Source: Candidatus Gottesmanbacteria bacterium (GTDB lineage Bacteria; Patescibacteriota; Microgenomatia; UBA10105; UBA927). Taken from it: a DNA stretch of 64,000 nt. The DNA lies in NCBI GenBank assembly GCA_023245335.1, contig JAHFKK010000001.1:619282-683281 (forward strand). The letters are read 5' to 3'. Position 1 is the stretch's first letter, and every line of letters begins with the position of its first letter. The notes beneath the pieces are model-generated. The model saw only the letters and a program-made list of their open reading frames with translations. It was not told the DNA's origin and made no database searches. A program made the position numbers and the translations under genes. Positions 14,301-34,638 of this stretch are shown piece after piece.

Positions 14301-14534
14301 CTACCGTGAGAAAATGGGCGTACTGGGGATCAGCCGGCGATAGATTTCGGCTGTCCCGGTATCGACGACCTCATCCAAATGTTCTAGGCTGCCGCGCTCT
14401 CTATTCAGCAAGTCAATTGCTTTTAGTGAAGCCTGGTTCAGGCTTTCGTGCGCATATTTTCGGGTTTCGTTTTCTTCGACCATATCGTCGCAGTATATCG
14501 CTGTAGTGTCAATTATATAATTTCGCTGAGACAA
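14301..14534 (-). pseudogene. PIN-domain (VapC-like) toxin relic, apparently frameshifted
   Basis: 77 aa ORF 'MSQRNYIIDTTAIY...' resembles a PIN N-terminus ('x-I-I-D-T-x-A-I'). About 50 further codons ('AQKRGLTQDEIDRKF...') continue in another frame down to about 14150, which would restore a typical roughly 130 aa PIN length. No antitoxin ORF is present. Confidence 0.3.
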
Positions 14535-16203
14535 ATACTTCCTTTACCGTGCTTCCGTTTATATCATCCAATTTCTGGAATTCTTTCTTGTGTTGCATAT
14601 ATTCGGGAGAAGCGAGAATGAATAGCGTGTTTCCGCCATGAGGAAGGCCTTTGAAATCAAATGACGGATCCATAAGCTTCATTCCGTTGGTATCCCAACT
14701 GGCTGACGTGAAGTAATATTTGCCGAAGTGCTCCCGGTTGCCCCCGCTTTGATAAACCGCCGGATCAATTCCACCCCAGTATAGTAGGAAGATATACGGC
14801 CTCCAGTAATAGCCGGAGATGTAGATACGGTCGTACTTATGTTCGTTTGCCCGGACATACGCGACCATCTGTTTGTTGCCGTCTCCAAATGAGAGAGCGT
14901 TATTCGTGGGGTTATTTACGAAGTAGGCGTAATGGAATTTTGGAAATGACAGCAGGAACCAGATGACCAAAGCGGTAAGAAGAACGGCAACAACCGGTTT
15001 GACGCGGGATTTTTTGGGAAGATACTCAAGTAAATATATAATTCCGAATCCGGACAGTACGGCAAATACGGGAGCGGCGATGAGCGTGCGGAGCGTATTC
15101 GGCTGATTCAGGCTGAAAGCGCCGGGGAAGAATCCGGTCACGAGCCATACAAGCAATACATACATAGAAAAAGGTGATAACGAGAACAGAAGGAGTAATC
15201 CGAGCGGCAACAACATCATGTCAAACGGATATAATGCGCCATAGGTGCCGGTGCCGGTCACAAATAGATTGTGAGGGTCGATATTCTTCCAATAATTTTC
15301 TAGGATCGTCTCAAGAAGTGCGATTCTTCTGTTGTAAATAATTTTATTGATGATGGTCGGGTGCACGGCCATGATATTTGTGTACGCTTCTTTTCGGTTA
15401 ATAAAGTTTTGATCGTTGACTACGCTTACGGTATTTATCCTCTGCCAACCGCCCGGCGAGAGCATCTCGCGTCCCATGGGAAAAAATACCGTGAGACATA
15501 TAGCTAGGGTAACGACTGATGTTTTCCACTCCTTTGTTACCGTTTTCCACTGAGTCACAAGGTAGAGAAGCGCCATAAACGGTATCACTAGTCTGACGGA
15601 GTAGTAGAAATATAATGAGGTGACATAAAAAAGTCCGGCGAGGAGGATTTCCCGGTAGTTTCTGCGGCTCCGGAGTAAAAAGTATGTACCCAGCATGAAC
15701 CAGAACACAGCGCCGTTACTTTCAAATAGCTGGCGTGAGAAGTTTATATGCCATGGCTGCAGAGCAAACATAAGGGTCGGGATAAGTGCGGCGTCGAATT
15801 CGCCAAGCTTGAGATGTCGTCTGTCACCCAAGAGTTCGGCCGCTAAGACGTACATAACGATAATTGCAAGAATGCCAAAGAGCGCGGATGGGAGGCGGGC
15901 GGCTAACTCGGTTCGGCCGAACAATGCGACGAAAGGGACGGTAGTGTAGACCATACCCGGCAATTTGTAATCGTCAAACGAACGGAACAGCAAAGGATAC
16001 GGTGCGCCGTACTCATCCTTGCCGGTTTTGAGTATTGAATACGCGTTGTACGCGATTGCCGTTTCGTCATGGGAGAGGGATGGCGGTATGGTTGTCAGCC
16101 GGTCAAAACGGAGATAGATGCCGATAATAAGAATCAGAGCAAACAAAATTATGGTAAAAGTCCTTTGAGAAGCGCCACTTAGGGGTTTACTCGTGTGTTT
16201 CAT
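14509..16203 (-). CDS. GT39/PMT-like (COG1807) GT-C glycosyltransferase, paralogue A
   Basis: 564 aa with the first-loop motif 'SHDETAIAYNAYSILKTGKDEYG...DDYKLPGMVYTTVPF' and 'RLPSALFGIL'. A conserved C-terminal soluble domain follows. Confidence 0.75.
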   Translation of the reverse strand: MKHTSKPLSGASQRTFTIILFALILIIGIYLRFDRLTTIPPSLSHDETAIAYNAYSILKTGKDEYGAPYPLLFRSFDDYKLPGMVYTTVPFVALFGRTELAARLPSALFGILAIIVMYVLAAELLGDRRHLKLGEFDAALIPTLMFALQPWHINFSRQLFESNGAVFWFMLGTYFLLRSRRNYREILLAGLFYVTSLYFYYSVRLVIPFMALLYLVTQWKTVTKEWKTSVVTLAICLTVFFPMGREMLSPGGWQRINTVSVVNDQNFINRKEAYTNIMAVHPTIINKIIYNRRIALLETILENYWKNIDPHNLFVTGTGTYGALYPFDMMLLPLGLLLLFSLSPFSMYVLLVWLVTGFFPGAFSLNQPNTLRTLIAAPVFAVLSGFGIIYLLEYLPKKSRVKPVVAVLLTALVIWFLLSFPKFHYAYFVNNPTNNALSFGDGNKQMVAYVRANEHKYDRIYISGYYWRPYIFLLYWGGIDPAVYQSGGNREHFGKYYFTSASWDTNGMKLMDPSFDFKGLPHGGNTLFILASPEYMQHKKEFQKLDDINGSTVKEVFVSAKLYN

Positions 16204-16206
16204 AAG

Positions 16207-17844
16207 TTATTTGTCGGTATCTACGACTACAAACTGCTCCGTATTGTCCGGCAGGAGAATGGTTGCGATGATTTTGGGGGAAAGTGCCCTGGGTACCTCA
16301 TCGGGTTTAGTGACCAGAAGCGTATGCTTCCTTGACGGATCCTTAGTCCAGTCAATGGCGCGGAACGAGAATCGTCCGAATCCGGAAACATCGGTGAATC
16401 CATCCGAAGAAGTGGAATATCGTCTGGCTTCCGTTTGATAGGATCGAGGTGAATAGCCGCTGTAAAAGAGAATATATATGTACGGGGACGTTTCCGGATG
16501 CGTCATGATGACCTGTTTATGTATGTTTTCGGGAGAGAAGAGAACGGGAGTAAGTTTTTTGTATCCGTAGCCCCAGCTCGCCGCTTCTGTTTTTGCGAAA
16601 TGGACGTAATACTGGTTGAGATACATTGCCATAGAGGCAAGATAACTACCAATGAGAATGATGGCAAGACCCGCCCGCCACCTTTTTGGTGTTTCGGTAA
16701 GTAACCACAAGATGCCGGAAGCAACCGCTACAGCAAATCCCGGCACGACAGCAAACATCCGGTTGCTGTGCGGGGCATCCTTGGTGATGGCGGCCGCCAC
16801 GGCTCCGATTGCGATCCACCAGAGGATGAGCTGGGCTGATTTTTTCTTTCGGTTGACGATAAGCCACGTAATACCCAGAAGGAGAAGCGGTGCTTCGATA
16901 GGATGTAGGTTCCCAAATCCCTGTATGTTATGAGCACTGTTTCCGCCTCCTTTGATAAACAGGAACTCGGGCCCGTAGGATCTAAGGTAGTTCTGGTAGA
17001 CCGTCGATATGCCGTAGGTTACACGGTTATAGATGAGACGGACAGGAGGTGCGTTTGGGTTAGGATAGAGAAGCCTCGGTAACTCGATGTTGTTGTGAAC
17101 AGTCGTCGGGTCCCCGAAAATACTGATCCCGGAAATTTTTGTGCGATCCGCACCCAAGAGTGTCGCCGATAATATGATTGCCGTTACCACTGTGCCTATT
17201 GCTACTGCGATCCACCATCGGGAGATCTTTGCCGCATCTTTGCCGTAGATACCGAAGAGTCCCATGAGAAGCAACGTAGTGAAGATGTGGTTGCCGTGAT
17301 ATGTATAGTAGGTGGAGGCAAAGAGTAAGGAAGAAAAAACGAGTTTCCTGAGAGATCTTTTCCGTATCGCGGAGAGAAAAAGGATGGAACCCACGATAGT
17401 CATAAAGACGGCGGCATTTGATTCCGACTCTACCCTCGAGATGTGGATGTGCCACGGCATAAGTGCAAGGACTGCGGCAGCAAGGAGTGCGAGCGGTTCA
17501 GAGCCGAAGAGAGAAAGGGCCAGTACGTAGAGCCCGGCAACTCCCAGGATGCCGGCAAGCGCTGACGGTAGGCGGACTGCGAGTTCCGATTCCCCGAATA
17601 GGTGAATAAACGGGATGTCGGCATATATGTAGAGAGGCATCTTCCAGTCCCCGAATGACTCAAACGATAACGGTAATATTTTGCCATACTCATCCCGTCC
17701 GGTGGTCGCAAGAGAGTGTGCGGTGAAACCGATGGCCGCTTCATCGCGGTTCACCCCCGGCGGTACGCTATCTAAACGATAGAGCCGCAGGAATGAAGCG
17801 ACAAGTATGATGCCTATCAGAGCTATTTTTCCGAATTTACTCAT
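16207..17844 (-). CDS. GT39/PMT-like (COG1807) GT-C glycosyltransferase, paralogue B
   Basis: 545 aa with 'NRDEAAIGFTAHSLATTGRDEYG' and 'RLPSALAGIL'. It sits in tandem with paralogue A. Confidence 0.75.
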   Translation of the reverse strand: MSKFGKIALIGIILVASFLRLYRLDSVPPGVNRDEAAIGFTAHSLATTGRDEYGKILPLSFESFGDWKMPLYIYADIPFIHLFGESELAVRLPSALAGILGVAGLYVLALSLFGSEPLALLAAAVLALMPWHIHISRVESESNAAVFMTIVGSILFLSAIRKRSLRKLVFSSLLFASTYYTYHGNHIFTTLLLMGLFGIYGKDAAKISRWWIAVAIGTVVTAIILSATLLGADRTKISGISIFGDPTTVHNNIELPRLLYPNPNAPPVRLIYNRVTYGISTVYQNYLRSYGPEFLFIKGGGNSAHNIQGFGNLHPIEAPLLLLGITWLIVNRKKKSAQLILWWIAIGAVAAAITKDAPHSNRMFAVVPGFAVAVASGILWLLTETPKRWRAGLAIILIGSYLASMAMYLNQYYVHFAKTEAASWGYGYKKLTPVLFSPENIHKQVIMTHPETSPYIYILFYSGYSPRSYQTEARRYSTSSDGFTDVSGFGRFSFRAIDWTKDPSRKHTLLVTKPDEVPRALSPKIIATILLPDNTEQFVVVDTDK

Positions 17845-20191
17845 GATAATTTTTTTTGACGATGAAAAGTGCCGCTGCTGTCGCCATAATACTTATGATA
17901 CTCAAAACTTCGCCCACAGCAACACTTACAGGCGCGTAGGTCATGATGACCGTGTGCGTGCCGGGAGGTACGGTGACTGCGCGAAAGGTCCAATCAGCGC
18001 GTAGGATATCTCCCGGTTTGCCGTCTATTGTGGCATGCCAGCCGGGATAGTAGGTGTCCGTAAGTACTAAGACCGAAGCGACCGGTCGTTCCGTCTGTAT
18101 AGTCAATGATTCCGGCTTGTAGTCTGTGATAGCGGCGGATCCCTCTTCTGCTGACTTCTCTATACCCGAGGGAACGGCGGGCAGAAGGACCGTCTCTGCC
18201 GGATCAAACGACGGAGAAAAGAGTTGTTTACCGAAGTCATCCGCGTTTTGATACGTCAGGATGTTTTTAGCAAGAAATGCCCGGGGTGCGGCTTTGAGAT
18301 TGGTAAATATATGCCAGTCTCCGGCGCTCATGGCCATAGCATACCGGCTGGGAGGGAACGTTTCCTGCGTACTGCCGTTTTCCAGACGATCGAGGATGTA
18401 TCGCACACTCAAAAGGTCCAGCATCCGTAAAGTATATGGGTCGTCGAATCCGTTTTTGCCGAATCCCGAGGAAATTGCGGCATCGGAGCGGGTCGCATTC
18501 GTAAATTGTGTCATCAATTTGCCGGTCCGATAGCCGTAGAGGAACTCGCCGTACCATTTAGGATACAAAGGATCATATCCTTCAGGAGAAAACATGCCGT
18601 ACTGCGTCGCGAAGTTCGCAGCTATCCCTGCCGTGCCGTATCCCCAATACCGGTCAGGACCGTGATGGGTAAGATAGGAGAGTATTTCATGATCAGGGAA
18701 TACGAGTGCTTGAGGCACAAATGGGTTGAATCGGTTAAAAAAGATAAAAAGGTCAAGCATGTGGACGATGAGTAAGAGGACAATCGCGTGCCGCCGCAGT
18801 GTCGGAATGGCTATAGCGATCCAAAAGAGCACGATCGTTGCCCCCGCAATAAGTCCGCCGTACAGAATTGCACGGAGCGCAACAGCCGCGTGCGCATGGA
18901 AGTCGGTAAAGAAAGGAAGCTTGGCGCAAAGGATGAGAAGAACAAATACAAGTGCTACCTCAAGCGTTCGTATAACCAGTTTTTTGACTGAATGTTTTTC
19001 CGTCATCCAATGATCGAGTCCCAGTCCGCCCAGGACCGATAAGCAAAACGCGAAAAGAAAAGCCATGAGCGTCGGACTACTTGCACTGAAGATGGGGATA
19101 GGTACGCGGTAGAGAAGATACGTTGCCGGATTGGCAGTTATGAGAATGCCGATAATAGCAAATGACCAGACATACCATTTGGTGATAGCATCTTTTCGCC
19201 GCATGGCGGAAAGCAAAAAGAAAAGAGGTACCAAGCCCACGGTCGTTACCTTGCCGACGAATGTATCCGCCGGCCAGTAGGTGCGCGTAGCCGGATTACC
19301 GAACATGTTCGGGAAAGCGGTTGCGAGAAGCTGCCAAGGCTGGATCAGAATTTTCGTAAATAGATTGGTGAATTCGTGAGGACTACGGGCCGCGAGTTGG
19401 ATAAGTTCGATACCGGGTATAAGCTGAAGTCCCGCGATTCCTATCCCCAGACTCATGAATATGCCCGAGGGGATCCATACTCTCCGTGGCAGCCGGAATG
19501 CGGCGTAGATGACGCTAAAGAGAATAAGATACCCGTATACCTGCGGATGACCGGCAAGGAGTGCCGAAGCGTTGCCGAGTGCAAGTACAGCAAACCACCG
19601 GGCTTTAGGTTTCTCCCGCAGAGACTCGATCGCAAGAAGGAGAAGTGGAAGCCAAAGAATGACGTGGCCTACCGTATTGTACTCGAGCCACACCGCCATA
19701 AACCCCGAGAACCCGTAGGAGAGTGCGGCAAGGAGCGATCCATAGGTCTTGCCTCCGATCTTTCGTATATACCAGTAGGTGAATATACCGGCAAGTAACG
19801 GTTGGAGGAGTGTCAGGATAGTCCATGCGGATACCTCGCTAAGGAAAAGGTACAAAATGGCGAGAGGGTATAATACTGCCGACTGAAAGTTTCCAAGAAG
19901 CGGTGAGCCCGAGAAGTTATACGGATTCCAGAGTGGTAATTTCCCCTGTTTAAGCTCATTTACCGCAAGCGTTTTCCAAGGATACATTTGGCGATATGTG
20001 TCCGGATACTGTGCCTTATTGGGGATGCCGCCAGCGGCATACCCGAGATATGCGGCAGAGCGCCAGGGTTGGAAGTCGCTTGCCAGGCCGTCACCGGGAA
20101 ACGGCACTTTCCCGAAGAGAACTGTTTGGTAAAAAAATATCGCGGTAACGGCGATAAGGATCCCGGTAACCCAGACGAATTCTTTTCTCAT
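17837..20191 (-). CDS. YfhO-family GT-C membrane glycosyltransferase (paralogue 3)
   Basis: 784 aa. The C-terminus 'YYPGWHATIDGKPGDILRADWTFRAVTVPPGTHTVIMTYAP' is followed by a TM anchor. Confidence 0.75.
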   Translation of the reverse strand: MRKEFVWVTGILIAVTAIFFYQTVLFGKVPFPGDGLASDFQPWRSAAYLGYAAGGIPNKAQYPDTYRQMYPWKTLAVNELKQGKLPLWNPYNFSGSPLLGNFQSAVLYPLAILYLFLSEVSAWTILTLLQPLLAGIFTYWYIRKIGGKTYGSLLAALSYGFSGFMAVWLEYNTVGHVILWLPLLLLAIESLREKPKARWFAVLALGNASALLAGHPQVYGYLILFSVIYAAFRLPRRVWIPSGIFMSLGIGIAGLQLIPGIELIQLAARSPHEFTNLFTKILIQPWQLLATAFPNMFGNPATRTYWPADTFVGKVTTVGLVPLFFLLSAMRRKDAITKWYVWSFAIIGILITANPATYLLYRVPIPIFSASSPTLMAFLFAFCLSVLGGLGLDHWMTEKHSVKKLVIRTLEVALVFVLLILCAKLPFFTDFHAHAAVALRAILYGGLIAGATIVLFWIAIAIPTLRRHAIVLLLIVHMLDLFIFFNRFNPFVPQALVFPDHEILSYLTHHGPDRYWGYGTAGIAANFATQYGMFSPEGYDPLYPKWYGEFLYGYRTGKLMTQFTNATRSDAAISSGFGKNGFDDPYTLRMLDLLSVRYILDRLENGSTQETFPPSRYAMAMSAGDWHIFTNLKAAPRAFLAKNILTYQNADDFGKQLFSPSFDPAETVLLPAVPSGIEKSAEEGSAAITDYKPESLTIQTERPVASVLVLTDTYYPGWHATIDGKPGDILRADWTFRAVTVPPGTHTVIMTYAPVSVAVGEVLSIISIMATAAALFIVKKNYHE

Positions 20192-20194
20192 ACG

Positions 20195-21823
20195 TCAGCG
20201 TTTTTTCTTTTGAGGCCAAAGAAAAGAAAAAGCAATAATGATAAGCGTCGAGACGGTCGTGATGTCGGCAGCCGTCCGTAACGGAGTCTCTCCGAAGGAT
20301 ACGGTGACATGATGTGTGCCGGGAGTCAAATGAAAGGTGATGTTGCCGCGATGATTTTGGTCCTGAAACTCTATAGGGATTTTGGTCGTATCGCTATAGA
20401 CTCTCCAGCCCGGATAATATTGCGTATTGTCGAGTATTTGGACTTCAGATTCTGCGATGACGGTGTATGTGTGTACGGTTTCTTTTTTGATCACATCAAG
20501 GATTTTACCTTTGCCGGCGATGAGCTCAACCGGTGCCTTAGGGAAGCTTCCTGCCGGTCCCGCTGACCACACGAGATTGGTTTCCCCGAAAAATGTCGAA
20601 TCCAGAGGATAATTCCAGTAATAGTTTTCATCTATCTTGTCGAACCCCAGCGGCGGGCGAAAGTATACGAGCGAAGATAATACTGTCACGACGATGATAC
20701 TTACGATGAGAATTTTCGAGGTAGATTTGTGTATGAGAACAGTTCCCCCCAGGATCGCGAGCGAAAATACGGTGATATTTAAGAATCGCCAAGGGAACTG
20801 GAATGCGCGAAGGATGGAAATGTGTTCCCAAAGAAATGTTGAAGGCGCAATCATGACAAATAGCGCACAGGCGGTAAGGATAAGAGCAAACCAGACGATG
20901 AGCCTTGTATCTTTCTTCAACTTGTTTTTTATAAGTAGCCATATGCTTAGGAGAAGCGTCACGGTCTGCATGAGTCCAAACGATACGTCAACTCCTCCGT
21001 TTTGAAGTGCCGCGGTATTGGTAAGGTTTGGGATGAAAAAATTCCATATCGGCGCAAGGTGCGTTTTGTACATATCTTTCATGAAAAAGTCTCCATAGGT
21101 ATATTTGCGTTCAAACGCGACGGGGATCCAGAAGAAGGCCGTGAGAAGGAGTCCGACGCCGAGTCCGGAGAATCCGGCCAATCGCTTCGTGTTGTTTGGA
21201 GCGAACAGAAGAACAAAAAGTACGGCGACGGCAAAGTATATGAGTCCGATGGCGCTATGGGAAAGGATCAAAAGTGCGGTCGCAATACCGGTTGCGATAC
21301 TGTACCTGCGCACGTCAATTCCCTCAAATACCTTTACCAGAAAATACAGAACGAGCGGCAGAAACGTCATGGCGAGCGATTCCCCTATATCGCCTCGTAC
21401 CACCATGTCGACCAGGTGAAACGGCGCGAACTGGTAGAGAAACGTCGCCACAAGGGCCTTGTTGCGGTCTTTGAAAAATGCATAGGCGAAAAGATACATA
21501 AAAGTTCCCGAAAGGAGGAAGCTTATAAGAAGCATAATTTTGAATGACCAGGCCAGATTCAATCCGAGTGCGACTAACCCTGATCCGAAAAGATATGGCA
21601 CGTGGTAATAGAAGTTAAAAAGAGGCATGCCGTAACCATAGTTGAGTCCGCCTGCCCATCGGGGGAGTATCTGCCCGCCGGTCAAAGCCTTGAAGTAGGC
21701 GGGAATACGTGCGATATGCATCGGACCGTCATGCGTGTGGATCATAAGGGGCGTCGCAAAAATCGTGATAAACGGGAGCGCTGAAATTGCGAAGATAAGA
21801 AGATAGTGTTTAAATGATTTCAT
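20195..21823 (-). CDS. Membrane protein with PTPS-related (PF10131-like) domain and YfhO-type C-terminal module
   Basis: The track ORF extends to 21922. The Met at 21823 ('MKSFKHYLLIFAI') mirrors the start of the paralogue at 32246. It carries 'PRWAGGLNYGYGMPLFNFYY' and the C-terminus 'YYPGWRVYSD...LTPGTHHVTVSF' followed by a TM. Confidence 0.62.
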   Translation of the reverse strand: MKSFKHYLLIFAISALPFITIFATPLMIHTHDGPMHIARIPAYFKALTGGQILPRWAGGLNYGYGMPLFNFYYHVPYLFGSGLVALGLNLAWSFKIMLLISFLLSGTFMYLFAYAFFKDRNKALVATFLYQFAPFHLVDMVVRGDIGESLAMTFLPLVLYFLVKVFEGIDVRRYSIATGIATALLILSHSAIGLIYFAVAVLFVLLFAPNNTKRLAGFSGLGVGLLLTAFFWIPVAFERKYTYGDFFMKDMYKTHLAPIWNFFIPNLTNTAALQNGGVDVSFGLMQTVTLLLSIWLLIKNKLKKDTRLIVWFALILTACALFVMIAPSTFLWEHISILRAFQFPWRFLNITVFSLAILGGTVLIHKSTSKILIVSIIVVTVLSSLVYFRPPLGFDKIDENYYWNYPLDSTFFGETNLVWSAGPAGSFPKAPVELIAGKGKILDVIKKETVHTYTVIAESEVQILDNTQYYPGWRVYSDTTKIPIEFQDQNHRGNITFHLTPGTHHVTVSFGETPLRTAADITTVSTLIIIAFSFLWPQKKKR

Positions 21824-23333: not shown

Positions 23334-23382
23334 GATGACTCAGGTTTGGTGATCTTAGGCCGCTTTTAGTACAATACCTCGT

Positions 23383-24645
23383 ATGGCACTTGAAATCATA
23401 AATGCGGTTCTTCTGTTTGCGTTTAGCATTCCCATAGTCATGAAATACAGGATACTTCCCGTGGACGGCACGCCCTACTGGCTATTCGGGGTCCTTTTCC
23501 TCATGCTGACCGTCAACTGTGTCACATCGTTTGTTCCGTCGGTACTCGGTGCGTTTCGCCGCCATGCGGATAAGGTGAAGAATACACTCCTCGTCGTAGT
23601 CCTTATCATCGTATTGGGAGGCGTCAGTATCACGGCGATGTTTGATCGGGCAAAGACCGCCCCTTTGTACGGCGTCCACGACATCATTCTGCAGCAGGAA
23701 GCCGCCATGCGGTATGTCATAACCGGCAAAAATCCGTATAAAGAGACGTACTTCGGCACGCCCATGGAAGCATTCCATTATGCCGAGATTGATAACGATA
23801 AGGCCGTGAATCCCGCGCTCTATCATTTTGTCATGCCGCCGTGGTATCTCGTATTTCCGTTTGCATTTTATTATACGGTTCGGCCCGTCGTTGGCTTTTT
23901 CGACGGACGTATGGCGCTCCTTTTCACCATGGGATTACTTCTTATCGCGCTCTGGCATTGGTTCAAGGATAAAGAAGTGGCCAGGCTTGCCGTCATACTT
24001 ACTGCGCTGTCTCCGGCTGTCATCGACTATTTTGTCGAAGGCAGAAGTGATGTATTTGCATTGTCATGGCTTATCGTGTCGTTAGTTTTCTTAGAAAAGA
24101 AACGGTTCATCTGGTCAGCCGTCATGATGATGCTCGCGATACTCAGTAAACAAACAGTATGGGTCATGGTGCCGTTTTATGGCATGATTCTGTGGCAGAG
24201 AACGATGAAGCGGTCTGCCGTTTTTTGGTCTAGTGTCGGTGTCTCGCTATTCGCGGGCGCGATGATCACGCTGCCATTTTTTCTTTGGGACCCCCGTGCG
24301 TTTTTGGACAGCGTCATTTTTTATTTGAACGGAAGTTCTCTCCATAGTTACCCCGTGTCCGGTTATGGACTGAGTATGGTATTGTACTCCGCCGGAATTA
24401 TCCGGGACATCCATGCGTATTATCCATTCATCATCTGGCAGGTGCTTGTCTGCGGTCCTCTATTTGTGTTCCTCGCCCGGTCGCTTTGGGCGAAATCGAC
24501 ACAGTCACGCCTCATGCTGACGTACTCGGTGTTTCTCATCGTATTCTGGTATATGAGCAGGTACTTCAACAACAGTCATCTCGGGTATCTGTCTATGCTT
24601 TTTGTATTGGCGGGGCTTAAAGGAATGGACGAGGGAAACATATGA
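23383..24645 (+). CDS. Polytopic membrane protein, GT87/DUF2029-like putative mannosyltransferase
   Basis: 420 aa, entirely hydrophobic. The 'LAILSKQTVWVMVPFY' segment resembles the GT87 core. This is a weak call made by eye. Confidence 0.4.
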   Translation: MALEIINAVLLFAFSIPIVMKYRILPVDGTPYWLFGVLFLMLTVNCVTSFVPSVLGAFRRHADKVKNTLLVVVLIIVLGGVSITAMFDRAKTAPLYGVHDIILQQEAAMRYVITGKNPYKETYFGTPMEAFHYAEIDNDKAVNPALYHFVMPPWYLVFPFAFYYTVRPVVGFFDGRMALLFTMGLLLIALWHWFKDKEVARLAVILTALSPAVIDYFVEGRSDVFALSWLIVSLVFLEKKRFIWSAVMMMLAILSKQTVWVMVPFYGMILWQRTMKRSAVFWSSVGVSLFAGAMITLPFFLWDPRAFLDSVIFYLNGSSLHSYPVSGYGLSMVLYSAGIIRDIHAYYPFIIWQVLVCGPLFVFLARSLWAKSTQSRLMLTYSVFLIVFWYMSRYFNNSHLGYLSMLFVLAGLKGMDEGNI

Positions 24646-26306
24646 AGCATACGGCGATAGGCACCGTTCTTTTTCTTATCGTCATCCTTTCGGGAATACT
24701 TCGGATTACGAACATAGGCACCAACCCGCCGTCCATTTCTTGGGATGAAGCATCGATAGGGTATAACGCATATTCCATACTGAAAACCGGCCGCGATGAA
24801 CACGGCAGGGTATTGCCTGTGGATACGTTTGCGGCATTCGGTGATTACAAACCGCCGATGCCTGTCTATCTCACCGTGCCGTTTGTCGCCATATTCGGCT
24901 TAAACGAACTGGCAGTTCGTTTGCCTTCGGCTATTGCAGGAACACTCACGGTATTGGCTTTATATTTTCTGGTGAACGAGCTGCTTTCTCATTCACTACA
25001 AGGGAAAAAACGTTTTACCGTCTATGGGTTAGGGGATGTAGCATATTCCGAAGCCATCGCCATTTCTGCTGCGGCACTTCTCTCAATCACTCCCTGGCAC
25101 ATCATGCTCTCACGGGCAGGGTTTGAGGCGAACATCGCGCTTCTCTTTATTACCGTAGGCGTATTGTGGGTGCTTGCAGCACGTCATAATGATCGTTTCC
25201 TCTACGTGTGCTGGTTGCCTTTTGTTGCGGGCGTCTATACGTTCAACAGTGCACGCTATGCCGGTCCGATGATTGCCGCTGGAAGCGTTTTATTTATCTG
25301 GAACCCTATACGGACGGCCCGGAAGCAGTTCGTGATCGGCGTCATTATCGCGGCGTTGGCGCTTCTTCCGATCATTCCGCACTTAGTCTCGAAGCAGTCG
25401 CGGTTACGGTTTGATGAAGTGAGCATATTTACGGATTTGAATGTCGTTTTGACCGCCAACGCCCGTCGGAAATATGACGGGAATACCTGGTGGTCGGGAA
25501 TTCTCGATAACCGCAGATTGAGCTACGCGCATTCATATCTTGTCCATTTTTTTGACAATGTCGAGCCGAGATTTCTTTTCATGCGGGGAGACGGCAACCC
25601 TAAATTTTCGATTCAGGATACCGGCGAATTACTTTTAGTCAGTGCACCCTTTGTAGCGTACGGCATTCTCCGGCTGTTTCAGGATGCGCCCGGGGTGGCG
25701 TGGTTTCTGGTGTGGTGGCTCGCGGTTTCCATAGCGCCCGCTGCGGTAGCTCGCGAAACCCCTCATGCATTGCGCGTGGAAAACGGTTTACCGGTCTACA
25801 TGATTGTCACGGCATACGGATTTGTGATGAGCCTGGTAACTATCCATAAACGTCGGCTTCAGGCAATACTTCTTTTAATTTTCAGCTTACTCTTTGCATT
25901 CAACTTCGCATATTTTTGGCACAACCTGACGTCGCATTATCCGACCGAGTTCTCCGGTGAATGGCAATACGGATATAAGCAAGCCATCCAGTATGTCGAC
26001 ACGGTGAAAAACAATTATGATACCGTTGTCCTCACGGAAAGTATCGGTCGACCCTATATTTATGTACTCTTTTATGACCGGGTGGACCCGAAAGTATTTT
26101 GGGCACAAAAGGATGCATCGTTTGACGCGGCAGGATTTTATAACGTCTATGGGTTCGGCAAATACCGCTTCGTCAATGACAGCATAGGTGAGCCTCGCGG
26201 CCGGACGCTGTATATCCTGGATCCGCAGCGGGTGCCCACAAGCGCACATGTCCTTAAAACGATACGGGTATTAAACGGGGCGCCGGTACTGGTGATATTT
26301 GATTAA
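24642..26306 (+). CDS. GT39/PMT-like (COG1807) GT-C glycosyltransferase, paralogue C
   Basis: 554 aa with 'SWDEASIGYNAYSILKTGRDEHG...DYKPPMPVYLTVPFVAIFG' and the C-terminus 'EWQYGYKQAIQYV...PYIYVLFYDRVDP'. Confidence 0.75.
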   Translation: MKHTAIGTVLFLIVILSGILRITNIGTNPPSISWDEASIGYNAYSILKTGRDEHGRVLPVDTFAAFGDYKPPMPVYLTVPFVAIFGLNELAVRLPSAIAGTLTVLALYFLVNELLSHSLQGKKRFTVYGLGDVAYSEAIAISAAALLSITPWHIMLSRAGFEANIALLFITVGVLWVLAARHNDRFLYVCWLPFVAGVYTFNSARYAGPMIAAGSVLFIWNPIRTARKQFVIGVIIAALALLPIIPHLVSKQSRLRFDEVSIFTDLNVVLTANARRKYDGNTWWSGILDNRRLSYAHSYLVHFFDNVEPRFLFMRGDGNPKFSIQDTGELLLVSAPFVAYGILRLFQDAPGVAWFLVWWLAVSIAPAAVARETPHALRVENGLPVYMIVTAYGFVMSLVTIHKRRLQAILLLIFSLLFAFNFAYFWHNLTSHYPTEFSGEWQYGYKQAIQYVDTVKNNYDTVVLTESIGRPYIYVLFYDRVDPKVFWAQKDASFDAAGFYNVYGFGKYRFVNDSIGEPRGRTLYILDPQRVPTSAHVLKTIRVLNGAPVLVIFD

Positions 26307-26308
26307 CT

Positions 26309-27988
26309 ATGCAGAAAGCGCGACCATATTTCATACTGATAGGCATCATTGTCCTCGCCGTTTTTTTGCGGTTTTGGCAATTGGGGAAGGTGCCGATTTC
26401 GCCGGATTGGGATGAGGCGGCGCTGGGGTATAACGCATATTCCATACTGAAAACCGGGCGGGACGAGTACGGTATCTTTTTGCCGAGAGAGTTGCGGTCG
26501 TATGACGACTACAAGCCGCCGCTCTATGCGTATCTCACCATTCCGTCTATTGCTGCGTTTGGGTTGAACGTGTGGTCGGTGCGTTTGCCGTCGGCGGTCA
26601 TGGGTACACTTGCCGTCATCGGCACGTATTTCTTGGTTCTCAAGCTTTTTGAGGATGAGAAAGAAAAGGAGAAAAGCAAGATATTGGGGATACGAGTGAC
26701 TTCTCTAGCGCTTCTTACTACGTTTTTTCTTGCCATCTCTCCGTGGCATCTGCAATTTTCGCGTATAGCATTTGAAGCGAATTCAGGTTTGACACTGAAT
26801 ATTCTTGGTATCGTAGCGTTTCTGTACGGGATCACGTCGCTTCCCTGGATGGCTGTGAGTGCGTTTCTTTTCGGCCTTTCGTTATATGCGTATCACAGTG
26901 AACGTGTGTTTGTTCCGCTTCTTCTCCTTTCGCTTGTCATCCTTTGGCGCAAAGAACTTTTCCGTGACTGGCGAAAGGTGCTCGTTGCCGTGGTTATCGG
27001 GCTTATGACCGTAGCGCCTCTTCTTCCTGTGGTGACGGATAAAACCGCCATGACCAGGCTCCAGGGAACGAGTCCGCTTTCTGATACGACAGGACTTCTC
27101 ATGCGTACGGTGAAAAAAATAGAAGAAGATCAAAAATCGGGGAATAAGTTCGGAGTGATTTTTGACAATCGCCGTATCGTGTACGTAAAAACTCTTATAG
27201 ACGGATATATCAGCCACTTTTCATTTAATTGGTTATTTCTGACAGGAGATAATGACCGGCATCATGCTCCAGACAACGGGATTCTGTACCTGTGGGAATT
27301 GCCGTTTGTCTTATGGGGCATACTTGCGGTGTATAGAAGGGGCGGACGCACGTCTAAGCTTCTTTTCACTTGGGTTTTGATAGCTCCGATCGCAGCTTCC
27401 CCAACCGGCGGGACACCACATGCCATTAGGACACTCGTTTTTCTCCCGACATTTCAGATATTTTCTGCGTTCGGGCTGTTACTCGCGGTTTCGCGTCTCC
27501 GCGGGCTTCTTTCGCGGGGACCAACGTGGAAACGTGTCGCATTCGCGGCAGTCGGTTCCGGCATAGTCATATTTGCGATGTTTGATATCGTCTTTTATTT
27601 CCATATGTATTATCACCAGATGAATAGGGAATACTCCCAAAACTGGCAATACGGATACGCACAAGCCGTACAGTATGCAGAAGTTCATAAAGGGAAGTAC
27701 GAGAAGATCGTCGTGTCGACCGCGCTTGAGCAGCCCCATATGTTTTTCCTTTTTTATACCAAATATGACCCGGCCAAGTATCTCGCTCAGGGAGGGACGG
27801 CATCAGGCGGGTTTAAGGAAATACGTAATCATTTCGATAAATATGAGTTCCGGCCGATCGGTAATTGGGCGAAAGAAAATCATAACGGAGAAACTCTGTA
27901 TATCGGCACACCAAAAGAAATTCCGACCGGTGCGCAGTATTCCATATATTATTTAGACGGGCAGGAAGCGATGCGTATAGCAGAATAA
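26309..27988 (+). CDS. GT39/PMT-like (COG1807) GT-C glycosyltransferase, paralogue D
   Basis: 559 aa with 'DWDEAALGYNAYSILKTGRDEYG...DYKPPLYAYLTIP' and the C-terminus 'NWQYGYAQAVQYA'. It contains an 'EDEKEKEKSK' insert. Confidence 0.75.
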   Translation: MQKARPYFILIGIIVLAVFLRFWQLGKVPISPDWDEAALGYNAYSILKTGRDEYGIFLPRELRSYDDYKPPLYAYLTIPSIAAFGLNVWSVRLPSAVMGTLAVIGTYFLVLKLFEDEKEKEKSKILGIRVTSLALLTTFFLAISPWHLQFSRIAFEANSGLTLNILGIVAFLYGITSLPWMAVSAFLFGLSLYAYHSERVFVPLLLLSLVILWRKELFRDWRKVLVAVVIGLMTVAPLLPVVTDKTAMTRLQGTSPLSDTTGLLMRTVKKIEEDQKSGNKFGVIFDNRRIVYVKTLIDGYISHFSFNWLFLTGDNDRHHAPDNGILYLWELPFVLWGILAVYRRGGRTSKLLFTWVLIAPIAASPTGGTPHAIRTLVFLPTFQIFSAFGLLLAVSRLRGLLSRGPTWKRVAFAAVGSGIVIFAMFDIVFYFHMYYHQMNREYSQNWQYGYAQAVQYAEVHKGKYEKIVVSTALEQPHMFFLFYTKYDPAKYLAQGGTASGGFKEIRNHFDKYEFRPIGNWAKENHNGETLYIGTPKEIPTGAQYSIYYLDGQEAMRIAE

Positions 27989-27996
27989 GGAATGCA

Positions 27997-29058
27997 ATGA
28001 ACAGCAAAAAAGTACTTATTACGGGTGGCAATGGATTCCTGGGCCAGCATCTCGTCCCGTATCTCTTAGACAAAGGCGGCGTGTCGCTTGTGATCTTTGA
28101 CAAACTGGACTCCCAGGAACGTAACACCCGAAAAGACGTCAGATACGCAAAAGGCGATATACGAAGAGAAGGCGATGTCACAAGAGTATTTCAAGAATAT
28201 GGACCGTTCGATACGGTGTATCACCTAGCTTCAGCCATGCCGGACCGCTCTCTCACCGATAGAGACACGTGGGAAACAAATGTCACAGGAACCGTCAACA
28301 TGATATCTGCCGCCCGGAAGAATAACGTGAGATCATTTCTATTTACGTCTAGTAACGTCACCTACGGACTCGTCAAAGATCTCCCCGTGACGGAAGACAC
28401 CCCCCTGCGGCCCATTGAGGTATACGGGAAAAGTAAGGTCCGCGCGGAAGAGGAGCTGGAAAAATATAAAAATCAAATCAACATACAGATATTCCGGTGT
28501 CCGGTCATTACCGGCGTCGGCAGACTAGGGTTACAGGCAATTTTATTTGATTTTATTTCCGAAAACCGAAACGTGTACGTCCTGGGAAACGGTGCAAACA
28601 TATATCAGTTCGTTGACGCGACCGATGTCTCGCAGGCATTGGAACGGGGTAGCCGCATGAAAGGCTTCGATATATACACCATAGGAGGGGACGGTGCCAT
28701 GCCGCTTAGAGATTTGTACCGGGAGGTCATCGAGTTTGCGCACAGTACATCACGTATCGTCTCATTGCCCCAATCCCCGGCACTAGGTATGCTTTCCTTC
28801 CTTAACGCGTTGAAAATTTCTCCGCTCGGAGTCTATCAGTATTCAATGATCGGACAATCCATGTATGCGGATACCACGAAGATCAAAAAGAAGCTCGGTT
28901 GGATCCCTCAAAAAACCATAGAAGAGTCGTTCATAGAAAATTATATATGGTACACGAAACACAAAGGGAATTTCGTGGAATTGGGCTCGGGTATATCGTC
29001 CTCAAACAGAAGCGTGCCGAAAATGGGAATTTTTAAGTTATTGAAAATGATTTCCTAA
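27997..29058 (+). CDS. NAD-dependent epimerase/dehydratase (SDR family), specificity unknown
   Basis: 353 aa with the Rossmann motif 'VLITGGNGFLGQHLV' and the YxxxK motif 'YGKSK'. Confidence 0.75.
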   Translation: MNSKKVLITGGNGFLGQHLVPYLLDKGGVSLVIFDKLDSQERNTRKDVRYAKGDIRREGDVTRVFQEYGPFDTVYHLASAMPDRSLTDRDTWETNVTGTVNMISAARKNNVRSFLFTSSNVTYGLVKDLPVTEDTPLRPIEVYGKSKVRAEEELEKYKNQINIQIFRCPVITGVGRLGLQAILFDFISENRNVYVLGNGANIYQFVDATDVSQALERGSRMKGFDIYTIGGDGAMPLRDLYREVIEFAHSTSRIVSLPQSPALGMLSFLNALKISPLGVYQYSMIGQSMYADTTKIKKKLGWIPQKTIEESFIENYIWYTKHKGNFVELGSGISSSNRSVPKMGIFKLLKMIS

Positions 29059-29084
29059 GATACCATTTTTCACTATTCGTTCGT

Positions 29085-30749
29085 ATGCGGAAGTTTTTAG
29101 ATACCGTCATCTCGAAAAAAATAATCCTCGTCCTCATTATGTTGCTCGCCGCAACCTTGCGGTTGTGGCAACTTGGGAGCGTACCGCCAAACACGTCAAA
29201 TGATGAAGCCTCTATAGGGTATAATGCCTACTCGGTTTCAAAAATCGGTGTGGATGAGTACGGTAAATTCCCTCTTATTTCACAGCGAGCCTATGATGAC
29301 TGGCGGCGGTCTACATATCTCCTGCTTGTGGTGCCGTTTGTTTCAACGCTGGGTTTATACAATATCCCCATCCGGCTGCCCGCTGTTCTATTGGGGTTAT
29401 TCACTATCCTCGCGACCTATTATCTTGTGCGTGCGCTGTTTCGAAAGCGATCCCTTATTTCTGAAATTACCGCCCTTCTTGCAGCTCTTTTTCTGGCTAT
29501 TTCGCCCTGGCATGTCTACATATCGCGCTTAGGGCACGAGTCGAACGCATATATGTCATTTTTTGTCTTCGGCCTTCTGTTTTTTCTCTGGGGCGTCCGG
29601 GACGCGAAGAACATGTTTCTCTCTTTTCTTTTTTTTACCCTCTCGATGATAAGCTATTATGCAGGCCAGGTCATCGTGCCCCTCATAGCGTTGGGGCTTC
29701 TCTTTGTCTATTGGAAAGATCTTACCCGCCTGGTCATATCGGATAAGCGGGTGCTTTTCGGGTTTTTGGCGTTTGTAGTACTCCTTGTGCCTATCCTATG
29801 GTCCATATTTTCTCCGGAAGCGCTCATACGTTTTCATGGGACGAGCACATTTGATCCCTCGGCACATCCCGCAGAGTATGCACAGCTTGTTCTTCGCCGA
29901 AACCAATCCGCCGCCGCCCACGACGTCATCGGCATGATTCTCTACAACAGGAGAATTTTTCCAATCCGAGTATTTGTCGAAGGGTATCTTTCTCATTTCA
30001 GCCCCGGATGGCTCTTTACCAATTCCGGCAAGGAATCGTTCAAAATTCCCAACATGGGCCTTATAAATATATGGGAAATTCCGCTCATACTGATCGGTAT
30101 GCTTGCATTTCTTTTTCACAAGGATGTCGATACCAAGTCAAAGAAGCTTATCGTTCTCTGGTTTTTCCTTGCCGCAGTCCCGGCCGCAATCGCGACCCAA
30201 GCGCCGCACGCGATGCGGGCATACGCGTTTCTTCCGACGTGGGAGATTTTTTCGGCGTTTGGGCTTGCCTATATTTTTTCGCATGCGAAAAAAATACAGA
30301 TAGCTATCCTGGTGCTTTTCCTGGCGGTCGCGGTCTATGATACCCGCGCTTTGTACACGAATTACTTTGTGGTATTTCCGCGCGAACAGTCGGAATCGTT
30401 TTACTACGCCATGTCAAAAGCGGTTCCCTACGTGTTGTCGAAATCCGCGGGCTATGAGTCTGTCGTTTTTTCTAACAAGGACAGTCTATACCAGTCCTAC
30501 ATGGGATTTTTGTACTACAGCCGTTATGACCCGTCACTCTATCAAACGGAGGGCGGGACAAAATCAGGCGGGTTTGCGGAAACGCACCGTTTTGGCAAGT
30601 ATGAGTTCCGTCCGATCCATTGGGAGACCGAAAAAAATGTTGAAAAGACACTGTATGTAGGGAATGTCGCTGACTTTCCTGCGGGCTCCCAATTCATGAC
30701 CTTCACATCTCTGGATGGAAAACCGACCATACTTGCCGTGAGTAAGTAA
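29085..30749 (+). CDS. GT39/PMT-like (COG1807) GT-C glycosyltransferase, paralogue E
   Basis: 554 aa with 'SNDEASIGYNAYSVSKIGVDEYG', 'RLPAVLLGLF' and a C-terminal 'YDPSLYQ' domain. Confidence 0.7.
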   Translation: MRKFLDTVISKKIILVLIMLLAATLRLWQLGSVPPNTSNDEASIGYNAYSVSKIGVDEYGKFPLISQRAYDDWRRSTYLLLVVPFVSTLGLYNIPIRLPAVLLGLFTILATYYLVRALFRKRSLISEITALLAALFLAISPWHVYISRLGHESNAYMSFFVFGLLFFLWGVRDAKNMFLSFLFFTLSMISYYAGQVIVPLIALGLLFVYWKDLTRLVISDKRVLFGFLAFVVLLVPILWSIFSPEALIRFHGTSTFDPSAHPAEYAQLVLRRNQSAAAHDVIGMILYNRRIFPIRVFVEGYLSHFSPGWLFTNSGKESFKIPNMGLINIWEIPLILIGMLAFLFHKDVDTKSKKLIVLWFFLAAVPAAIATQAPHAMRAYAFLPTWEIFSAFGLAYIFSHAKKIQIAILVLFLAVAVYDTRALYTNYFVVFPREQSESFYYAMSKAVPYVLSKSAGYESVVFSNKDSLYQSYMGFLYYSRYDPSLYQTEGGTKSGGFAETHRFGKYEFRPIHWETEKNVEKTLYVGNVADFPAGSQFMTFTSLDGKPTILAVSK

Positions 30750-32241: not shown

Positions 32242-32245
32242 TTAT

Positions 32246-33883: not shown

Positions 33884-34638
33884 AGATGTCCGTCGCGATG
33901 GCGACGTTCAACGAAGAAAAGAATCTCGATGCATGTCTCGGAACGGTGAGCGCGTGGGTCGATGAAACGGTCATTGTCGATGGGGGATCAAAGGATAGGA
34001 CTGTCGCAATCGCGAGGAAGTACGGCGCAACCGTCATCGAAACGGACAATCCGCCGATATTCCATATCAATAAGCAAAAGGCTCTGGATGCGTGTCACGG
34101 GGACTGGATACTGCAGTTGGACGCCGACGAAGTGGTAGACGGTGCGCTCCGTGATGAGATACTCGCGGTCATACATAATCCCGATGCCAAAGACGCATAC
34201 TACCTGCCCCGAAAGAATTTCTTCATAGGACACTGGTTGTCCAAGGGGGGACAATATCCCGACTACCTTATCCGTCTCTTCCGAAATGGCAAAGGGAAAT
34301 TCCCGAATAGAAGCGTTCATGAACAGATTGCAGTATCGGGATCGGTCGGGTATCTTACCAAACCACTTTTGCACTATACAAACCGGACATTTGCCGATTA
34401 TTGGCGAAAAGCGGGCACCTATACGACGCTCACCTCGGATGAGCTTCTAGCCTGTCACACAGGTAAAGACCCTCTAACATTTGTGCGCTTCATGGTCCTA
34501 AAGCCTCTATGGACTTTTCTAAGGCTGTATATCCGTCACAAAGGCTTTGTTGACGGCATGTGGGGATTTCTATTTGCGCTTTTTTCCGGACTTCATTACC
34601 CGATCGCGTATTGGAAATATCTGACCCGCGCGGCATAA
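33865..34638 (+). CDS. GT2 glycosyltransferase (WaaE-like); paralogue of 4123..4890
   Basis: 257 aa with 'MSVAMATFNEEKNL', 'VDGGSKDRT', 'LDADE' and 'YLIRLFRNG'. The start may be the Met at 33880 or 33886. Confidence 0.7.
   Translation: MAAKKMKMSVAMATFNEEKNLDACLGTVSAWVDETVIVDGGSKDRTVAIARKYGATVIETDNPPIFHINKQKALDACHGDWILQLDADEVVDGALRDEILAVIHNPDAKDAYYLPRKNFFIGHWLSKGGQYPDYLIRLFRNGKGKFPNRSVHEQIAVSGSVGYLTKPLLHYTNRTFADYWRKAGTYTTLTSDELLACHTGKDPLTFVRFMVLKPLWTFLRLYIRHKGFVDGMWGFLFALFSGLHYPIAYWKYLTRAA

Follow-up and report, generated by a model that had tools for sequence, protein, structure and literature searches.

Anciently duplicated PMT_2 paralogues with a distinctive C-terminal domain in a glycosyltransferase-rich block of a Gottesmanbacteria genome

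What might several related copies of one kind of membrane glycosyltransferase gene, kept together at a single locus, do for a bacterium of the Candidate Phyla Radiation (CPR, Patescibacteria)? Such bacteria have tiny genomes and a lifestyle presumed to be one of attachment to other cells, and surface chemistry is central to them. The question is raised by a stretch of 64,000 nucleotides (nt) of a Candidatus Gottesmanbacteria genome (assembly GCA_023245335.1, contig JAHFKK010000001.1, about 1.2 Mb in length, positions 619,282 to 683,281), here called the window, in which a preliminary description had picked out five open reading frames (ORFs; designated paralogues A to E, Table 1) as one family of glycosyltransferases. 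The five are indeed present as full-length paralogues, and their family relationship is confirmed far beyond chance: in an all-versus-all BLASTP comparison of the 50 non-overlapping window ORFs of at least 150 amino acids (aa), they are mutually 28-34 % identical over nearly their full length (E values of 1e-46 to 1e-97; 1e-46 to 1e-66 for paralogue A against the other four), which is far above random pairs of GT-C (glycosyltransferase fold class C) proteins. No other ORF of this set, including two further proteins with a PMT_2 domain, is linked to them at E<=1e-3. Their multiple alignment (MAFFT, alignment A1) contains 52 invariant columns. Coordinates and spacers furthermore bear out the arrangement as two tandem pairs, one on each strand, and a fifth gene. 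On the minus strand, B lies upstream of A with a spacer of 3 nt, while on the plus strand C and D are separated by 2 nt and the 5' end of C overlaps a preceding GT87 gene by 4 nt; between D and E lies a single gene for an epimerase of the short-chain dehydrogenase/reductase (SDR) type, with spacers of 8 nt on the side of D and 26 nt on the side of E.

As to the family, all five paralogues pass the Pfam gathering score of PMT_2 (PF13231; 26.9-39.4 bits, threshold 26.1 bits) and are PMT_2 proteins by this standard, the match spanning only approximately residues 70-240. The PMT domain proper (PF02366, threshold 22.7 bits) is exceeded solely by paralogue B (31.3 bits), a second paralogue scores 20.3 bits, three have no match, and no MIR, PMT_4TMC, or STT3 domain was found by Pfam in any of the five. 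By these matches the proteins appear not to have the eukaryotic-type PMT architecture (PF02366, MIR, PMT_4TMC); bacterial Pmt is not known to carry MIR either, so that the absence of MIR and PMT_4TMC rules out the eukaryotic type only. No NCBIfam model of ArnT or Pmt is matched at E<=0.01, and the Agl23 model TIGR03663 (cut-off 126.25 bits) yields 32, 23.4, and 15 bits in three paralogues (E values of 6e-8 to 1e-2) and nothing in the other two.

An AlphaFold2 model of paralogue D, based on an alignment of the five with homologues (A2, 60 sequences), has a predicted local distance difference test score (pLDDT) of 87.1, a predicted template modeling score (pTM) of 0.88, and 11 transmembrane (TM) helices. 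Its first external loop (residues 23-87) contains two helices (34-49 and 72-84) and a hairpin, the loop that joins TM7 to TM8 (residues 244-327) is long and modeled with low confidence, and a very long last helix (406-446) leads into a compact alpha/beta domain. Searching the Protein Data Bank (PDB) with this model, Foldseek assigned a probability of 1.0 to AglB, ArnT, STT3, ALG9, AftA, and Pmt1/2/4. The best E value belongs to AglB (5e-9), followed by several STT3 structures, and the best TM-score to ArnT (5f15; 0.56/0.58, E of 5e-8 to 9e-8), with Pmt1/2/4 at E of 4e-4 to 3e-3 and TM-scores of 0.29-0.45. Judged by the model, the paralogues are members of the GT-C superfamily in the structural class of ArnT, PMT, and STT3, which together with the PMT_2 matches agrees with the PMT_2/ArnT-like assignment in the preliminary description. 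Lysine and arginine are far denser in the predicted inside loops than in the short outside loops (0.31 vs 0.04), as expected from the positive-inside rule; the N-in topology agrees with these densities, which places both of these loops (loop 1 and TM7-8), like the C-terminal tail, on the outer side of the membrane.

The outward-facing loop 1 is the best-conserved region among the five (49 % identity), the least conserved being the TM7-8 loop (23 %), the TM8-11 region (25 %), and the tail (28 % mean identity). An acidic loop-1 signature, a second TG/IG-DE motif, and RLP[SA][AV], all highlighted at the outset, are literally found in the five in alignment A1, in which their loop-1 strings read SHDETAIAYNAYS / NRDEAAIGFTAHS / SWDEASIGYNAYS / DWDEAALGYNAYS / SNDEASIGYNAYS. 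The second motif is TG[KR]DE[YH]G in four paralogues and IGVDEYG in the fifth, and four have RLPSA[LIV] where the fifth has RLPAV. Conservation extends well beyond the window, as seen in a set of 272 sequences, in which the five are joined by 267 ORFs of the family collected at 76 loci in other genomes. In the numbering of paralogue D (26309), D35-E36 is kept in 266 of 267 ungapped sequences, and R374 (271), R92 (266), D52 and R152 (263 each), and E156 (251) are kept in nearly all of the 272.

The signature had been regarded as a feature of the family itself. By eye, it is rather a version of the ArnT loop-1 motifs and no innovation: ArnT of E. coli MG1655 has DET, GDW, EKP, and LFG..N.FGVR in the same succession as DE, G-x-DE, D-x-K-P, LFG, and R-L-P in the family, and the ArnT chain is matched by the profile from K69-P-P onward (set on the KPP of ArnT) and through LFG..N...R. 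Smith-Waterman alignments of loop 1 with ArnT are not significant (z of 0.6-4.4, with DET set on DET in one only) and the family hidden Markov model (HMM) gives E. coli ArnT 12.6 bits; because the pairwise alignments are not significant, the correspondence rests on inspection and weak HMM matches. An hhalign comparison of the family with the single E. coli ArnT sequence returned an offset alignment at 0.6 % probability and was discarded as meaningless. The signature is best read as the ArnT/PMT_2 catalytic loop, a reading that argues for all five being active enzymes, and they are putatively all catalytically competent. The combination of a conserved loop 1 with a divergent TM7-8 loop and tail would fit a common donor and chemistry with divergent acceptor sites. 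Of the suggestion that the family has diversified in acceptor or sugar specificity, the part concerning the acceptor is plausible on account of this difference in conservation.

A shared C-terminal domain of roughly 150 aa had also been claimed. It aligns in all five, at a somewhat smaller size: the last hydrophobic segment lies within residues 391-428 and ends at about 409-428, leaving 125-140 soluble aa according to a hydropathy scan of the five (for example, about aa 426-564 in paralogue A). The motifs attributed to it, 'W(Q)YGY' and 'DP', are looser than described, with WQYGY intact in two paralogues, WGYGY in a third, and FGDGN and FYYAM in the remaining two, and with DP in four of the five. 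Across the 272 family sequences, W446, Y448, and G449 of the former motif are kept in 199, 184, and 217, respectively. Located just past the last TM helix, it resembles the WWDYG motif of STT3, AglB, and PglB in sequence and presumably in position; the place of the Asp of WWDYG is mostly occupied by Gln, Gly, or Asn in the family. Modeled alone from 23 aligned sequences (A3), the tail has a pLDDT of 85 and the order helix, strand, two helices, four strands.

This domain has no credible match in any library of described domains and structures that was searched. Pfam offered one 14-bit match to GH3_M (E of 0.053) in one of the five tails and thus nothing credible. Foldseek gave no match to a PDB structure at E<0.2 (best E of 0.23, TM-scores <=0.32, no GT-C among the 50 best matches listed), the tail profile matched no PDB sequence credibly and recovered no oligosaccharyltransferase there, and the tail HMM did not match E. 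coli ArnT. Among 1.84 billion representative proteins, the tail profile recovered 2,619 clusters (50 % identity) at E<=1e-3, 1,160 of them at E<=1e-10. In all of the 150 best clusters listed the match ends near the C-terminus, and the full-length-looking proteins among them (about 500 aa or more) comprise 504-604 aa. The tail HMM likewise matches 253 of the 267 family ORFs of other genomes, with a median of 5 residues beyond the domain, and in the window it matches the five only (partly by construction). The tail is accordingly a real shared domain and defines a subfamily, whose members measure about 530-600 aa and combine PMT_2 in their N-terminal part with this specific alpha/beta domain as the last element of the chain.

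The two other PMT_2 proteins of the window (21822-23333 and 30763-32241) are not matched by the tail HMM, and hhalign of A1 with 21822-23333 aligns the N-terminal 250 aa only (E of 1.5e-4). Their own tails (about aa 370-503 in 21822-23333 and aa 385-492 in 30763-32241) nevertheless have a helix, a strand, and a 'PY.Y.L' piece colinear with the start of the family tail; profile-profile comparisons by hhalign with orthologue sets gave an E of 0.08 and a probability below 1 %. A broader, older C-terminal module common to several CPR PMT_2 subfamilies is possible.

The further statement that canonical PMT and ArnT enzymes lack such a domain fails as a description of architecture, because ArnT consists of a membrane region and a periplasmic domain (PMC7801869), and each of the four GT-C families with a structure by 2019, i. 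e., STT3, AglB, PglB, and ArnT, has a soluble periplasmic domain (bioRxiv 10.1101/2019.12.22.885152). What is special is the particular domain only, which has no detectable similarity in sequence or by Foldseek to the ArnT domain or to any solved structure. The variability of soluble domains in GT-C enzymes has been attributed to their differing acceptors (bioRxiv 10.1101/2019.12.22.885152).

How old is this set of paralogues? Paralogue D has more than 7,100 homologues, labeled Patescibacteria or Gottesmanbacteria where labels are present and named 'glycosyltransferase family 39 protein' or 'ArnT family glycosyltransferase'; the 'GT39 family' names given by NCBI appear to have been assigned from domain matches. 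At least 567 relatives came out of a pattern scan in which each GTDB species was represented by a single genome. The 77 best loci (designated by L and a number) are mostly titled Gottesman-, Levy-, Woese-, Roizman-, Curtiss-, Chisholm-, Shapiro-, or Blackburnbacteria, that is, CPR of Microgenomatia type, and the variant is apparently CPR-typical. About one third bear the title 'uncultured Gammaproteobacteria/Pseudomonadales' and two are titled Deltaproteobacteria or Bacteroidia. Clear C-D orthologues (39-59 % identity) are encoded in L011 (PDZS01000039.1), L047 (JANWKZ010000049.1), and many third-party annotation (TPA) records of 'uncultured Gammaproteobacteria'. The deltaproteobacterial, bacteroidial, and gammaproteobacterial titles probably reflect mis-binned or mislabeled CPR contigs and not an occurrence of the family outside Patescibacteria.

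At these loci (<=20 kb), the family has one to six copies (mean 3.5). Each paralogue of the window is 45-75 % identical to its own closest relatives elsewhere, as compared to about 30 % among the paralogues, and each heads a separate neighbor-joining clade with members from 5-40 other loci. Orthologues of A (45-71 % identity) are found in L002-L007 and L053, those of B (54-66 %) always adjoin an A orthologue (L002, L003, L004, L005, and L053), and those of C form their own clade from 33 loci. C and D are found as a pair again at 19 or more loci, and an E orthologue comes after the D orthologue in L008, L009, L039, L062, and L074. In L062 and L074 the entire order C, D, epimerase, E is kept, with epimerase orthologues of 64-65 % identity in the same position, and is followed by the same downstream genes; overall, the synteny with related genomes covers window positions 2020 to about 35822 (45-85 % identity). 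Separate orthologue clades and conserved gene order imply that the duplications predate the divergence of these lineages and were retained. Repeated duplication followed by divergence, as initially proposed, is in keeping with the paralogy, but orthologues of each paralogue and the conserved order in other Microgenomatia speak against a local expansion: the duplications are ancient and conserved, not recent. Ancient, retained paralogues are the pattern expected for non-redundant functions.

The five genes are by no means alone, and to speak of a five-member family understates the locus, as the same operons contain nine or more additional GT-C genes (Table 1). The region 4900-37989 has an unusual density of genes for GT-C-fold glycosyltransferases, and the gene order of this block is kept in related CPR genomes (L002-L007, L053, L062, and L074). 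The last YfhO gene and the first PTPS_related gene are co-oriented with the B-A pair (spacers of -8 and 3 nt). Downstream of E, the genes for a PMT_2 protein, a PTPS_related protein, a family 2 glycosyltransferase (GT2), and a polytopic protein (30763-35822) follow each other at -19 to 17 nt, in an order that L062 and L074 have kept. Spacing between -19 and 49 nt points to operons. The polytopic protein 12401-14131 showed no relationship to the family (hhalign E of 0.23), and the epimerase between D and E reaches no NCBIfam equivalog cut-off.

Table 1. Paralogues A to E, their mapped parts, and neighboring genes (window positions; aa numbering of the protein concerned).
Feature	Position	Strand	Remarks
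Paralogue A	14509-16203	-	564 aa GT-C; PMT_2 34.3 bits; DE motif D46-E47
Paralogue B	16207-17844	-	545 aa GT-C; PMT_2 38.7 bits; DE motif D34-E35
Paralogue C	24642-26306	+	554 aa GT-C; PMT_2 39.4 bits; DE motif D35-E36
Paralogue D (protein modeled)	26309-27988	+	559 aa GT-C; PMT_2 26.9 bits; DE motif D35-E36
Paralogue E	29085-30749	+	554 aa GT-C; PMT_2 31.3 bits; DE motif D40-E41
First extracytoplasmic loop (EL1) of D	26375-26569	+	aa 23-87; putative catalytic D35-E36, D52-E53, D67/K69
Tail domain of D	27602-27985	+	aa 432-559; predicted extracytoplasmic alpha/beta domain
WQYGY motif of D	27644-27658	+	W446-Y450
Tail equivalent of A	14512-14928	-
Tail equivalent of B	16210-16614	-
Tail equivalent of C	25920-26303	+
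Tail equivalent of E	30360-30746	+
YfhO family protein	4900-7209
YfhO family protein	8206-10530
YfhO family protein	17837-20191	-	Pfam YfhO E 1.7e-24
PTPS_related paralogue	20195-21922	-	32 % identical to 32246-33883
PTPS_related paralogue	32246-33883	+	PTPS_related E 2e-12
PMT_2 protein without family tail	21822-23333	+
PMT_2 protein without family tail	30763-32241	+
GT87-like protein	23383-24645	+	directly upstream of C
GT87-like protein	36907-37989
Polytopic protein without Pfam match	12401-14131		'PDE' in the segment after the first hydrophobic helix
Polytopic protein without Pfam match	34656-35822	+	'PDE' in the segment after the first hydrophobic helix
SDR sugar epimerase/dehydratase, NAD-dependent	27997-29058	+	Pfam Epimerase E 3e-40
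GT2 downstream of E	33865-34638	+	same operon
GT2 like polyprenyl-phosphate-sugar synthases	37994-38710	+	paralogue of the next two
GT2 like polyprenyl-phosphate-sugar synthases	106-852
GT2 like polyprenyl-phosphate-sugar synthases	39923-40750
Wzx-like polysaccharide flippase	38671-39966	+	Pfam Polysacc_synt, Polysacc_synt_3
Wzx-like polysaccharide flippase	839-2287		Pfam Polysacc_synt, Polysacc_synt_3

Three small GT2s have NCBIfam best matches that include AglJ (E of 5e-27 for 37994-38710), Dol-P-hexose transferase, PpgS, PgfS, and ArnC, all below the curated cut-offs, and are plausible candidates for the makers of a lipid-linked donor. The surrounding genes of the window encode about ten GT2s, seven family 4 glycosyltransferases (GT4s), seven SDRs, five methyltransferases, and one acetyltransferase; GalE (58837-59886) is the only one of the seven SDRs to reach an equivalog cut-off.

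Several side observations concern this surrounding island. The GC content is 0.36-0.39 at 44001-56000, compared with 0.47-0.51 elsewhere in the window, and this part holds an SDR resembling GDP-fucose synthase (44794-45738; 302 bits, cut-off 500), other SDRs, three methyltransferases, GT4s, and a membrane protein of 1175 aa; within the glycan island, this section may have been acquired horizontally or be hypervariable. The 1175-aa protein (51614-55141) and a protein of 686 aa (55691-57751) are polytopic paralogues (27 % identity over about 200 aa, E of 5e-15), each with several TM segments at the N-terminus, a large soluble portion, and a TM segment that anchors the C-terminus. Neither matches a Pfam family at threshold (DUF5667 reaches 24 bits vs 27), and both look like further GT-C enzymes in the style of YfhO or AftD. 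At the divergent operon junction, 20195-21922 (minus strand, GTG start) and 21822-23333 (plus strand) overlap by 101 nt on opposite strands (21822-21922), with tblastn matches in L002 and L053 overlapping likewise; an overlap of this kind suggests that at least one start codon is probably over-called. Lastly, the ORF 59840-60454 (204 aa) has an N-terminal Glyco_transf_4 domain only and directly precedes a complete GT4 (60458-61588), so that it may be a split or truncated duplicate.

What, then, do the five proteins do? Modeled fold, topology, and motif conservation make it very probable that they are GT-C transferases with a lipid-linked sugar as donor, active at the membrane's outer face. We further propose that each paralogue would take one sugar from a polyprenyl-phosphate-sugar, add it at a particular position of a growing surface glycan, and thus perform one step of an assembly line, a proposal whose prospects we judge to be evenly balanced. 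The polyprenyl-phosphate-sugar would be made on the cytoplasmic face by the DPM1/AglJ/ArnC-like GT2s of the island and then flipped, and a paralogue, with 11 TM helices and a cytoplasmic N-terminus, would take the sugar from the flipped donor and transfer it to the growing cell-surface glycan. The Asp/Glu residues of loop 1 could act as catalytic base or metal site, K69, R92, R152, and R374 might hold the phosphate, and the divergent TM7-8 loop and C-terminal domain may form the acceptor side of the site. Each paralogue would serve a different step, as defined by acceptor position, linkage, or sugar, in an assembly line run jointly with the neighboring YfhO, GT87, PTPS-related, and other PMT_2 GT-C enzymes.

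There are precedents for such chemistry. Systems of an undecaprenyl-phosphate (Und-P) sugar and a GT-C enzyme modify glycans outside the membrane (PMC11127046), and for GT-Cs of the YfhO type both teichoic acids and proteins serve as targets of glycosylation (PMC12041528). The GtrA/GtrB/GtrC-type and GT136 systems share the logic, as a synthase, of GT2 type or another kind, makes the polyprenyl-phosphate-sugar and a GT-C adds the sugar outside the membrane (PMC11127046). In the GT136 enzyme ORF12, a periplasmic domain follows TM1 and a second extramembrane domain follows TM11, with ArnT closest in sequence (PMC11127046). Set beside GT136 by description only, the locus differs in having neither a UbiA-type phosphoribose synthase nor a GtrA-type flippase in the window, and many GT-C genes instead of one.

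Several points weigh against an assembly line of single-sugar transferases. Sequence similarity to characterized enzymes is marginal: in PDB sequence searches, ArnT was found at E of 0.43 with the profile of the five (A1) and 0.04 with that of 60 sequences (A2), over TM2-6 only and never significantly, and an STT3 at 0.21. Structure prediction of the tail, which had been suggested as a way to find a carbohydrate-binding fold, gave a small alpha/beta domain and no such fold. Neither a small flippase of the GtrA type nor a priming phosphoglycosyltransferase was seen in the window, and the glycan is a putative acceptor that the sequence itself does not single out.

An alternative that we consider unlikely, albeit worth serious attention, is that the paralogues are protein O-glycosyltransferases, which would transfer sugars from a polyprenyl-phosphate carrier to Ser/Thr residues in proteins that are secreted or exposed at the surface, for example pilins, S-layer proteins, or disordered Ser/Thr-rich regions. 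The paralogues might then differ in their protein substrates like fungal Pmt1-7, and the tandem pairs, which are conserved between genomes, might be heterodimers like Pmt1-Pmt2. With PMT/POMT and bacterial Pmt (GT39) the family shares the GT-C fold, the DE motif directly past TM1, 11 TM helices, an outward-facing C-terminus, the organization as a multigene family whose members differ in specificity, and the label given in databases, in addition to the one PF02366 match above threshold and the Foldseek matches to Pmt1/2/4. Streptococcal GT-Cs, moreover, act on Ser/Thr-rich regions together with GT2 Und-P-sugar synthases and an epimerase, and pgfS-pgfM1-pgfE-pgfM2 presents a similar mix of genes (PMC12041528). 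Four of the five paralogues, however, fall below the PF02366 threshold, the TM7-8 loop is without MIR, PMT_4TMC is missing, the TM-scores to PMTs stay under that of ArnT, and the C-terminal alpha/beta domain is distinct. The setting of at least 14 GT-C genes, Wzx-like flippases, and many cytoplasmic glycosyltransferases rather resembles polysaccharide assembly, and no obvious Ser/Thr-rich substrate was seen among the large proteins inspected (S+T fraction of 0.10-0.15).

The proteins could alternatively resemble oligosaccharyltransferases or ligases that pass a glycan en bloc from undecaprenyl-diphosphate, flipped by Wzx, to protein or cell wall, with WQYGY in the role of WWDYG. In favor of this idea are the best Foldseek E value (AglB, with STT3 next), the two Wzx-like flippases of the window, a soluble domain right after the last TM helix, a conserved W-x-Y-G at the presumed position of WWDYG, and one relative (P0108) with a precomputed STT3 Pfam match. 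We nevertheless regard it as improbable: none of the five matches Pfam STT3, tail profile and tail model recover no oligosaccharyltransferase from the PDB, the Asp of WWDYG is not kept, the tail is much smaller (about 115 aa vs >200 aa), there are 11 TM helices instead of 13, and the sequence affinities are with PMT_2/ArnT. At least five such transferases at one locus would also be unusual.

Decoration of membrane lipids or lipid-anchored glycolipids in the manner of ArnT, by which the surface charge or other properties of a membrane not fully self-synthesized would be tuned, is in our estimation very improbable. ArnT (GT83; PDB 5EZM/5F15) is the closest structure by TM-score and the best or second-best PDB sequence match. 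Beyond PMT_2 and the GT-C fold, it shares with the family a length of about 550 aa, a presumed polyprenyl-phosphate-monosaccharide donor, an outer-side C-terminal soluble domain (PMC7801869), and, by eye, the loop-1 succession of DE after TM1, G-x-D, (D/E)-x-K-P, and LFG..N...R, in which K69-P-P, LFG..N, and R92 line up with EKP and LFG..N.FGVR. ArnT has, however, 13 TM helices (bioRxiv 10.1101/2019.12.22.885152) as opposed to the 11 predicted for the family, the C-terminal domains are unrelated by HMM and Foldseek, and no NCBIfam ArnT model is matched. Membership in CAZy GT83/ArnT, including the ArnT-type periplasmic domain, is thus not indicated by the sequences. No ArnA/B/D-type pathway was found in the window, where all SDRs except GalE stay below the ArnA and other equivalog cut-offs; the host belongs to the CPR, two to six conserved paralogues occur per locus, and five to six of them are hard to square with a single lipid target. 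That some or all of the five are non-catalytic, be it as scaffolds or flippase-associated proteins like archaeal Agl23 or as degenerate duplicates, has next to no probability, as the weak TIGR03663 matches of three paralogues lie far under the cut-off, the acidic loop-1 motif and conserved Arg are kept in all five and in nearly all 272 family sequences, and every paralogue is retained as an orthologous lineage of 45-75 % identity.

Returning to single-sugar transfer onto a surface glycan, we can also envisage a more ambitious version, which we offer as a doubtful conjecture: a Microgenomatia-specific extracytoplasmic glycan factory, in which 14-18 GT-C enzymes of at least five families in the window would build an envelope polymer stepwise from lipid-phosphate sugars, with B-A and C-D as heterodimers and the tail as a previously undescribed acceptor-recognition fold. 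By analogy, its logic would be comparable to the assembly of mycobacterial arabinogalactan and lipoarabinomannan (LAM) or to the lumenal ALG pathway of the endoplasmic reticulum (ER). The mycobacterial EmbA/B/C, AftA-D, and GT87 enzymes similarly constitute a GT-C battery that uses polyprenyl-phosphate-sugars, serves one complex envelope glycan, and has acceptor-tailored soluble domains (bioRxiv 10.1101/2019.12.22.885152); AftA is among the Foldseek matches and GT87-like genes are neighbors in the window. The window proteins are, in contrast, much smaller, have no beta-sandwich domains like carbohydrate-binding modules, and belong to an unrelated phylum.

A set of ArnT/PMT-like paralogues would by itself hardly surprise glycobiologists, since fold and chemistry are of a known kind and the proteins are already filed under generic 'GT39/ArnT family' labels. 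In the literature searched on GT-C, GT39, or PMT_2 in CPR, Microgenomates, or Gottesmanbacteria, however, no description of these GT-C arrays was found, and neither the subfamily nor its tail domain nor the block of many GT-C genes conserved in Microgenomatia is described there. A lineage of Microgenomatia devotes a conserved block of at least 35 kb to GT-C membrane glycosyltransferases, including a large subfamily that comprises about 2,600 clusters (50 % identity). Its defining tail stands outside Pfam and is matched by no solved structure. Should each paralogue carry out one step of an extracytoplasmic glycan pathway, the subfamily would qualify as a candidate new CAZy subfamily or Pfam domain, and it could help to predict the envelope glycans, and perhaps the host recognition, of uncultured bacteria.

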